Shown: positions 1-25,763, numbered from the stretch's first letter. The stretch is 32,000 nucleotides of DNA from an uncultured Cyanobacterium sp. (GCA_964409355.1 CAYPDC010000004.1:16335-48334), one strand, 5' to 3'. A program made the numbers and translations. Notes: generated by a model from the sequence alone, not told the origin.

Positions 1-1802
<1,802 letters not shown>

Positions 1803-22853: not shown

Positions 22854-22927
<74 letters not shown>

Positions 22928-24668: not shown

Positions 24669-24821
24669 CTATTTAGTATAATAACGTTTTTCTGCTTCTA
24701 GCTGTTGAACTAAGGCATTTTGTCCATTTGCTTTCGCAACTTCTAAACGATGCTCTAAACTTTTGAGTAAGTTTGTTCTGTGAGCTTGACGTGCATTTTC
24801 AAGAGCTTTTTGACTAATCAT
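24669..24821 (-). CDS. 50-aa helical small protein, possibly PirA-like (PII-interacting regulator of arginine synthesis); not in ORF track
   Basis: Hand translation gives MISQKALENARQAHRTNLLKSLEHRLEVAKANGQNALVQQLEAEKRYYTK. An AGGAG SD sequence lies 8 nt upstream of the ATG (24830-24834). The A..AH...L...LEHRLEVA.A.G...L..QLEAE pattern matches my recollection of the PirA (Ssr0692) family, but I cannot verify this here. Confidence 0.6.
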   Translation of the reverse strand: MISQKALENARQAHRTNLLKSLEHRLEVAKANGQNALVQQLEAEKRYYTK

Positions 24822-25029
24822 TTTCTTTTCTCCTATATTATTTAATATTATTTAACAATAGACTTCTCCAAAAATAATAGTTTTTGAACAGTATTTCGGG
24901 CTTCTAGCCCGATTGATGGAGATGTCTAATAATTATGAGAGGAAATGCGAATAAAGTGCGATCGCAAAGGAATTTACTACGCAGCACGCACCTCAGCAAT
25001 CCTCCCATGCAAAAACCCGTTATTATCTA

Positions 25030-25176
25030 CTATTGAAGTCCGACTTGTTCAGACACTCTTTCCAACATAGTAGCCTGACGATGACTTTTCCGTTGACGAC
25101 TATCAACCATTAATAAACGAGCTTGTTGACCGATGGAACTGATATTATTGGTAGTCTGATTTAATTTAGCGTTCAT
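25030..25176 (-). CDS. gifA: Glutamine synthetase inactivating factor, IF7-like (48 aa); not in ORF track
   Basis: Hand translation gives MNAKLNQTTNNISSIGQQARLLMVDSRQRKSHRQATMLERVSEQVGLQ. A strong GGAGG SD sequence lies 6 nt upstream. The QQAR.LM...R....R....ML.R...E.G core aligns with my recollection of Synechocystis IF7, including three spaced Arg residues. A glutamine riboswitch sits in its leader. Confidence 0.75.
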   Translation of the reverse strand: MNAKLNQTTNNISSIGQQARLLMVDSRQRKSHRQATMLERVSEQVGLQ

Positions 25177-25214
25177 GATTCGCCTCCTCTAAGTTTCGAT
25201 GAGTTTAGATTTGA

Positions 25215-25272
25215 GGCGCGTTCCTTCAGAAGGTGTTACTTCTTACTTCCGTCTGACTAATGCAGATGAACG
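25215..25272 (-). promoter_or_regulatory. Glutamine riboswitch (glnA RNA motif) in the gifA leader
   Basis: The minus strand reads CGUUCAUCU-GCAUUAGUCA-GACGGAAGUA-AGAAG-UAACAC-CUUCU-GAAGGAACG-CGCC. It contains the conserved CGUUCA, GACGGAAGUA and GAAGGAACGCGCC blocks. P1 forms as CGUUC/GAACG and the internal hairpin as AGAAG/CUUCU. Confidence 0.8.
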
Positions 25273-25290
25273 ATTTATCCTTACTCTTTT

Positions 25291-25320
25291 AATATAACTA
25301 AAAAGTATCAAATTTGACAA
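25291..25320 (-). promoter_or_regulatory. Sigma70-type promoter of gifA with an overlapping NtcA-like box
   Basis: On the minus strand, TTGTCA (25320-25315) is followed by an 18-nt spacer and TATATT (25296-25291). GTC-N8-TAC (GTCAAATTTGATAC, 25318-25305) overlaps the -35 element and spacer, one mismatch from the GTA-N8-TAC consensus. Confidence 0.5.
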
Positions 25321-25378
25321 CTTTTTTTTCTAACGAATTGTAAAGATTTTAGAAATTAGGGTGTTAGGGGAGTTTCTG

Positions 25379-25399
25379 AATTCTTAATTCTTAATTTCT
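25379..25399. repeat. Heptamer array AATTCTT AATTCTT AATTTCT next to the rpmF stop
   Basis: Read directly. It uses the same unit as 3087-3117. Confidence 0.8.
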
Positions 25400-25404
25400 C
25401 CTTC

Positions 25405-25581
25405 TTATTCCTCGGTTTCTTCTTCTTCTTTCGTGGAATAAACAAAGCTGTTTGCTTTACCCGTTAAAACAGATTTACCCAAAGATAGGGCTTTTTGAGC
25501 TTGTAATTCAGCTTTTTTGATCCAATGGGCGCGACGTTGATTACGTTTAGATTTAGAGGTTTTCTTCTTCGGTACTGCCAT
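25405..25581 (-). CDS. rpmF: 50S ribosomal protein L32 (58 aa); not in ORF track
   Basis: Hand translation gives [74 protein letters not shown] is the L32 signature. Confidence 0.93.
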
Positions 25582-25763
25582 AAGTTTTAATAAAAATAAT
25601 AGTTATTCTGTTTATTTACACAACTTCACTATTTTAACCATAGTTAATGGGTGCTGACAATATTCTTCTAGTTTTCCACAAAAAAAATAAATCAAACAGG
25701 TGTGGGATGAATACTTCTACTACGATCAGCACAAGTTTCTAGCAACAAAATAAACATTCTATC

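Follow-up and report, generated by a model that had tools for sequence, protein, structure and literature searches.

We found that a 32,000-nt stretch of DNA from an uncultured Cyanobacterium sp. (hereafter the window, meaning this whole stretch) very probably contains a functional type 1 glutamine riboswitch, which resides in the 5' leader of a small mRNA and most likely acts as a translational ON switch. The first product of this mRNA is a 48-amino-acid protein with an IF7 core, a presumed inhibitor of glutamine synthetase (GS). Sensor and gene are located on the minus strand in a 583-nt spacer, which a preliminary description of this DNA had called 'empty'. The term was a fair one, since the neighboring proteins are on record at NCBI and no gene with the 48-aa product is. 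The spacer can now be annotated with a sensor for a metabolite and with a regulator gene of 48 codons that had not been called. The same strand carries rpmF (25581-25405) upstream of it; downstream, the small gene is followed by pirA and then by a gene for a PBP4-type carboxypeptidase.

The whole window was scanned with cmscan against Rfam 15 using gathering thresholds, which yielded three matches in all. One of them, at 25274-25215 on the minus strand, is to RF01739 (glutamine riboswitch aptamer, glnA leader), with 55.2 bits against a gathering score of 35 and E=1e-9; it is an untruncated match that spans the entire model (positions 1-53 of 53). This full-length match directly supports the identity of the aptamer. 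It confirms the proposal of the preliminary description that the spacer harbors a glnA RNA (glutamine-I) motif, and the accession given there, RF01739, is that of the correct family. The outcome that the preliminary description had named as refuting, a score under the gathering threshold, did not occur. RF01704, the type 2 glutamine riboswitch (Downstream-peptide motif) of marine picocyanobacteria, was not found in the window at gathering thresholds. Type 2 has the ligand, the ON response and short IF-like cargo genes in common with type 1, but it has a different fold, belongs to a different Rfam family and has DUF4278-only cargo proteins. The two other Rfam matches are located elsewhere in the window:

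831-1017, minus strand: IsrR antisense RNA (RF01419, full-length match, 185 bits), which implies isiA on the opposite strand and confirms that the DNA is of cyanobacterial origin
22854-22927, plus strand: tRNA gene (RF00005, 62.5 bits) with anticodon loop CUCAUAA and anticodon CAU

The elements of the aptamer are listed here from 5' to 3':

25215-25274, minus strand: type 1 glutamine riboswitch aptamer (glnA RNA, RF01739), found by cmscan
25268-25272, minus strand: 5' strand of P1, CGUUC, from the Rfam alignment
25252-25266, minus strand: first hairpin, UCUG/CAGA, whose stem has one C-U mismatch at its top, from the Rfam alignment
25244-25252, minus strand: conserved junction ACGGAAGUA, invariant in alignment A6 (see below)
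25228-25243, minus strand: second (variable) hairpin, AGAAG/CUUCU with loop UAACAC, from the sequence and the Rfam alignment
25219-25227, minus strand: GAAGGAACG, from the sequence
25220-25227, minus strand: GAAGGAAC, conserved ligand-pocket nucleotides, from the sequence and the Rfam alignment
25219-25223, minus strand: 3' strand of P1, GAACG, from the Rfam alignment

The minus-strand sequence that had been quoted for 25272-25215 agrees exactly with the window. P1, which pairs CGUUC (25272-25268) with GAACG (25223-25219), and the variable hairpin AGAAG/CUUCU (25243-25228) are as described before; the first hairpin UCUG/CAGA is an additional element. The ligand-pocket nucleotides of RF01739 are all present, namely ACGGAAGUA at 25252-25244, GAAGGAAC at 25227-25220 and a C at 25218 directly 3' of P1. 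The aptamer of Synechococcus elongatus, for which a crystal structure is available (Ren et al., 2015, via PMC11477058 and PMC6212724), has the same three-helix architecture, the same ACGGAAGUA junction with two guanines and a C directly after P1, but differs in the stem and loop sequences of P2 and P3. In this structure the junction nucleotides G22 and G23 have a role in the ligand pocket, and glutamine binding causes G23 to insert at the P1 base and to pair with C60 as the linchpin (PMC11477058). We infer from position, by alignment only, that the junction GG at 25250-25249 corresponds to the ligand-contacting G22/G23, and C25218 is likely to be the linchpin C, the counterpart of C60.

Folded alone, the aptamer is not thermodynamically unusual (z=+0.47); it was identified by means of the covariance model and of comparative data. 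Such a value is in keeping with an aptamer of low affinity that relies on Mg2+ and ligand. Since the closest relatives are too similar to each other, covariation was taken from other genera. Alignment A6 comprises 19 aptamers that precede IF7-core genes. P1 is invariant and paired in 19/19 of them, and of 14 predicted pairs, six are changed on both sides, all of them in the two hairpins. The variable hairpin covaries across relatives between AU/GC and GC/AU, and the first hairpin shows compensatory changes within this IF7-core group.

The leader opens into a short reading frame:

25030-25176, minus strand: 48-codon ORF encoding a short IF7-core (gifA-like) protein, from ORF listing, NCBIfam match and conservation

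The ORF starts with ATG at 25176-25174 and ends with TAG TAG at 25030. Between the end of the aptamer and this gif-type start codon there are exactly 38 nt (25214-25177), the distance that had been given for it. The homology of the ORF to the IF7 core is directly supported by a match to the NCBIfam model GS_inact_IF7A (NF052599), in which residues 14-47 align with profile positions 2-35 of 66 (E=1.2e-5, 25.4 bits). The C-terminal half of the model is left unmatched and the equivalog cutoff of 70 bits is not reached, so we call the product an IF7-core relative and not an IF7A equivalog. 'gifA-like', the label used in the preliminary description, is more suitable than gifB-like, since the ORF matches the IF7 core only and is devoid of DUF4278. 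A Pfam search with the ORF gave no match at E<=0.1, including DUF4278 (PF14105), and DUF4278 was not detected at E<=1 in 19 aligned family members; control DUF4278 proteins from other riboswitch loci scored 41-67 bits. The IF7/IF7A (gifA) proteins of Synechocystis and Anabaena share the core motif QQARxLM...R...NRQxxML.R...G with the window protein, which is shorter (48 vs ~65 aa) and does not have the C-terminal half of the IF7A model.

A word-indexed homology search with the 48-aa product returned four close relatives; the closest named relatives are from Cyanobacterium aponinum (83%) and Geminocystis (65-71%). The length of 48 aa is kept in relatives, for example in a 'hypothetical protein' of Cyanobacterium aponinum. 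A full HMMER scan combined with a profile search revealed a family of ~100 clusters with lengths of 41-56 aa, distributed over Cyanobacterium, Geminocystis, Crocosphaera, Hydrococcus, Pleurocapsales, Gloeocapsopsis, Gomphosphaeria and others. All family members that carry a source name are called 'hypothetical protein', a Pfam domain is on record in only one of them (P0110, 105 aa, DUF4278), and no curated model naming the short IF7-core family was found. The IF7A model is matched by 19/19 aligned family members (best E 8.4e-10), and a PDB sequence search with the family profile yielded nothing meaningful. The family alignment displays the motif QQARLLM...R.R..NRQ..MLER...E.G, and the arginines R20, R27, R33 and R40 are invariant or nearly invariant (alignment A2). 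Residue by residue, the arginines of the ORF would correspond to those of IF7. Three conserved arginines are essential in GS-inactivating factors (PMC6316151). By homology, the 48-aa protein is presumed to be a GS inhibitor.

More distant IF7-core relatives (P0018, P0020, P0021, P0024 and P0023) include tandem duplications, with two QARxLM...MLxR repeats in 72-84 aa; one protein, with 233 aa, has two such repeats at its C-terminus, behind a further region.

The arrangement of sensor and gene is conserved. In Cyanobacterium aponinum the gene order rpmF, 48-aa ORF, pirA, PBP4 is kept, and an RF01739 match of 53-55 bits was found directly upstream of the 48-aa ORF in 6/6 homologous loci tested. 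Promoter, leader and start codon have a mean column identity of 91% in relatives, with aptamer and expression platform almost invariant, and the ORF is 84-90% identical, with nucleotide differences concentrated at third codon positions. Judged by these values, constraint is stronger on the leader than on the coding sequence, and the ORF changes in the manner of a gene. The 48-codon ORF is short and has not been called as a gene on its contig, and it could be argued that the aptamer is a chance match or a decayed, functionless remnant and that the ORF is no gene at all. Given the E-value of the RF01739 match, the conservation of aptamer, platform and ORF across genera, the bias of substitutions to third codon positions and the many protein clusters in the same family, we consider this almost inconceivable.

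How the aptamer could control the gene is suggested by the sequence between P1 and the start codon, which contains the following elements:

25213-25218, minus strand: anti-Shine-Dalgarno tail CGCCUC, directly 3' of P1, from the minimum free energy (MFE) hairpin and covariation
25188-25209, minus strand: upper stem of the predicted fold, UCUAA (25209-25205) with UUAGA (25192-25188)
25181-25190, minus strand: Shine-Dalgarno region AGAGGAGGCG, in which GAGGCG (25186-25181) is the partner of the anti-Shine-Dalgarno tail, from the sequence and covariation

The start codon (ATG, 25176-25174) is preceded by the strong Shine-Dalgarno (SD) sequence AGAGGAGG. The tail CGCCUC (25218-25213) is complementary to GAGGCG (25186-25181) inside the ribosome-binding site, and the UCUAA/UUAGA stem lengthens the helix. 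The resulting sequestering hairpin is the MFE structure, with -12.4 kcal/mol and z=-2.8; 3/200 shuffles fold as well. For comparison, 67 cyanobacterial platforms were aligned from GAAGGAACG to the start codon (alignment A4, helix columns 10-15 with 53-58). In this alignment 96.2% of the cells of the anti-SD/SD helix are paired and 5/6 pairs are changed on both sides, a degree of pairing and covariation that was reached by 0/500 shuffles. When the partner strand was slid by 1-3 columns as a control, pairing fell to 35-55%. Matched variants are CACCUC/GAGGUG in 4/4 loci, CGCUUCUC/GAGAAGCG in 3/3 loci, CGUUCC/GGAACG, and CGUCUC/GAGGCG via a G-U pair. Covariation of the two strands is thus directly supported. 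Most of the 67 sequences have the same pairs, tail and SD being highly conserved, and the conservation of GAGGCG could partly stem from ribosome binding alone. As read from these alignments, the covariation supports the published translational ON model, and it adds comparative support for SD sequestration, which in the 2018 paper was no more than a postulate, made for Synechocystis.

The MFE fold of the whole leader pairs the 5' strand of P1, CGUUCAU, with AUGAACG at the start codon. We rejected this pairing as a conserved alternative: C. aponinum has AUGAAAG at this position, and in other genera the second codon is unrelated.

Many riboswitch classes use terminators, and the 38-nt platform does form a hairpin, which is what premature termination or antitermination of transcription would call for. 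No terminator-like site (intrinsic terminator) was found in 24700-25700, which fits translational control. The platform hairpin is followed by AAUCAUG and not by a U-run, its 3' arm is the Shine-Dalgarno sequence itself, and the covarying helix always includes the SD, 5-9 nt before the start codon. We regard an action of the aptamer on transcription instead of translation as extremely unlikely.

For a translational switch, the following course of events is proposed. At low glutamine, the CGCCUC tail 3' of P1 would pair with GAGGCG in the ribosome-binding site, and a hairpin of -12 kcal/mol would hide the SD. Upon glutamine binding, a junction guanine would insert at the base of P1 and pair with the first C of the tail; this would reorganize the base of P1, destabilize the sequestering helix and free the ribosome-binding site. 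The inhibitor would be made only at high glutamine, which would result in negative feedback on GS. Ligand binding, the ON direction and the competition for the linchpin C would be expected here from the work on Synechocystis gifB and from the S. elongatus crystal structure. Klahn et al. described that in Synechocystis the linchpin C and the nucleotides following it can pair with the ribosome-binding site, melting on binding being a postulate (PMC6212724).

Switch direction is not readable from sequence with certainty, and repression of the gene by glutamine binding, that is an OFF switch, might be envisaged. Since C25218, the linchpin C by position, is the first base of the anti-SD, binding would compete with sequestration and translational ON is the most likely direction. 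Both types of glutamine riboswitch have been found experimentally to switch expression on (PMC6212724), and it would be counter-productive to produce a GS inhibitor when glutamine is low. An OFF switch is, in our judgment, very unlikely.

A second layer of control might act on the promoter, for which two candidate elements were found:

25291-25320, minus strand: predicted sigma-70-like promoter, TTGTCA (25320-25315), 18 nt, TATATT (25296-25291), 10/12 consensus positions
25305-25318, minus strand: possible NtcA operator GTC-N8-TAC over the -35 hexamer, a pattern match

The promoter, a consensus match only, would place the transcription start 11-13 nt ahead of P1, in line with the ~12 nt predicted previously; all testable elements of that earlier interpretation held. 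The promoter match is invariant in relatives of the C. aponinum clade, and L067, a distant locus, has GTC-N8-TAC over the -35 hexamer as well. With 79 occurrences in the window, where 66 would be expected, the loose motif GTN10AC is not enriched, so that pattern statistics are weak for the NtcA site. In most DUF4278-type leaders a perfect GTA-N8-TAC, followed by ACAGAA, precedes the aptamer by 23-36 nt and overlaps the -10 region, the layout expected for NtcA repression. In comparison to these, the site in the window is degenerate and located over the -35 and not the -10 region. Many IF7-core leaders have no NtcA-like site. By homology to the known systems, NtcA control of the window promoter is plausible, and NtcA may also repress transcription under nitrogen limitation via GTC-N8-TAC. 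When about 75 nt upstream of each aptamer were compared among loci L010-L129, two leader/promoter styles became apparent; many IF7-core leaders, including that of the window, share AGGAUAAAU directly before P1.

The gifB leader of Synechocystis sp. PCC 6803 (Klahn et al., 2018; PMC6212724) is the closest known system for comparison. It has the aptamer family and the conserved cores in common with the window, is likewise the 5' UTR of a gene of the GS-inactivating-factor type, and its P1 is followed by a 3' tail complementary to the ribosome-binding site. Translational ON is expected in both systems, and an additional NtcA-repressed promoter is plausible in both. The cargo differs: Synechocystis gifB encodes the 149-aa IF17 with an N-terminal DUF4278, whereas the cargo in the window is a 48-aa IF7 core without DUF4278 and the next gene is pirA. 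In Synechocystis, control of gifA is exerted by the sRNA NsiR4 instead of a riboswitch. Anabaena-type strains with gifA only have been reported to have no aptamer (PMC6212724).

To determine which genes follow this aptamer in other genomes, we scanned one genome per GTDB species for the exact motif CGTTCA...ACGGAAGTA...GAAGGAACG, which gave at least 120 loci. Only aptamers with the exact core motifs are seen in this census, which is a sample and not a total. Among the matches listed, the first ORF after each of 79 cyanobacterial aptamers was assigned to a class, and the classes were confirmed by Pfam and NCBIfam spot checks:

DUF4278 only: 24/79
DUF4278 and IF7 core (IF17/gifB type): 16/79
IF7 core only, as in the window: 17/79, about a fifth
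DUF4278 fused to a PirA domain: 9/79
DUF4278 followed by pirA: 1/79
Other small ORFs, or choice of ORF ambiguous: 11/79
No ORF recoverable, the aptamer being at the edge of the locus: 1/79

The arrangement of the window is a common and recurring one, found for example in Crocosphaera watsonii WH 8501, Hydrococcus rivularis and Microseira wollei. Klahn et al. (2018) reported DUF4278 proteins downstream of the aptamer in 25/28 genomes and, from its absence in Anabaena-type strains with gifA only, argued for a functional tie of the aptamer to gifB (PMC6212724), and a 2024 paper identified gifB homologues simply as DUF4278 hits. The census departs from this generalization, as the aptamer is not tied to DUF4278/gifB. 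The preliminary description had seen in the locus a match to the published finding that cyanobacterial glutamine riboswitches sit in gif leaders; this is correct insofar as the aptamer lies in a gif-type leader, but the published tie is to gifB/DUF4278, for which the cargo in the window is atypical.

In the same scan, 43/120 of the matches listed came from marine SAR86, SAR116, Pelagibacteraceae and other proteobacterial MAGs or single-cell genomes (L014, L015, L020, L024, L030, L036, L053, L063, L066, L087, L099 and L111 are examples). Some of these loci have two aptamers in tandem, and by appearance the N-termini of the downstream ORFs resemble those of ammonium-transporter, glutamine-synthetase and glutamate-synthase genes. 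In the 2018 paper the aptamer was reported from cyanobacterial genomes only, on the basis of RefSeq 80 (PMC6212724).

The second gene that recurs with the aptamer is pirA, which in the window lies next after the 48-codon ORF:

24669-24821, minus strand: pirA, 50 codons, from NCBIfam NF050139

Its product scores 71.9 bits in NF050139, above the PirA equivalog cutoff of 50 (E=3e-20). Among the matches listed, pirA is the next gene after the IF7-core gene in 11/17 IF7-core loci from other genera or MAGs (L012, L022, L029, L056, L059, L067, L075, L081, L083, L112 and L120), with gaps of 13-142 nt; the short ones are 13 nt in two Crocosphaera loci (L029 and L083), 22 nt in L056 and L059, and 27-42 nt in L022, L075 and L081. 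This recurrence suggests that IF7-core gene and pirA are a conserved two-gene module for nitrogen excess. In nine further loci among the matches listed (L021, L027, L035, L040, L047, L068, L069, L082 and L089), the aptamer is directly followed by a continuous ORF of 120-158 aa in which DUF4278 is fused to PirA. Four of these fusions were spot-checked; the N-terminal DUF4278 scored 41-67 bits (gathering score 25.3) and the C-terminal PirA domain 39-55 bits, with 2/4 above the cutoff of 50. Taken as next gene or fusion, about a quarter of the sampled cyanobacterial aptamers are linked to PirA among the matches listed. Some of the homologues called 'gifB (DUF4278)' would therefore be PirA fusions and not IF17.

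The riboswitch in the window may govern both genes, provided that they are co-transcribed; this would extend the main explanation and not replace it. Both genes are on the same strand, and neither a terminator-like site nor a GTN10AC site was found between them. The tandem is kept in the C. aponinum clade as well as in the loci named above, and in the nine other genomes the aptamer directly precedes the fusion ORF. In the window, however, the gap between the two genes amounts to 208 nt, ~80 nt of which are an insertion absent from relatives, and a weak promoter-like match (9/12) is present at 25051-25022. Moreover, a translational switch on the first cistron would not by itself control a distant second one, and the pirA of Synechocystis stands apart as a gene that has an NtcA-repressed promoter of its own (PMC8092223). 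We consider joint control of the two genes in the window possible but rather doubtful, and it leaves the translational ON switch ahead of the IF7-core gene as described.

The insertion is located at about 24847-24926 on the minus strand in the spacer between the gif-like gene and pirA, and four relatives do not have it. It contains a small hairpin, CGGGCU-AGA-AGCCCG (about 24911-24897), which is not followed by a U-run. The spacers between gif-like genes and pirA contain the cyanobacterial HIP1 palindrome GCGATCGC.

The searchable PirA papers and reviews contained no mention of a riboswitch link, of gifA-pirA synteny or of the DUF4278 fusion. The covariation of the platform, the frequency of IF7-core-only cargo and the recurrent association of aptamer and PirA go beyond the searchable literature. 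In the annotated spacer, sensor and regulator gene belong to the well-studied feedback loop by which glutamine synthetase is restrained under nitrogen excess. The regulon of this riboswitch may be wider than gifB, with IF7 core, DUF4278, IF17 and DUF4278-PirA as interchangeable cargoes and, in many lineages and probably here, the IF7-core/pirA pair; glutamine would then gate both GS and the control of arginine synthesis via PII/NAGK, a reading for which we see not quite even chances. Provided that the PirA link is a functional one, ammonium assimilation and the control of arginine and of the ornithine-ammonia cycle would be coordinated through glutamine sensing.
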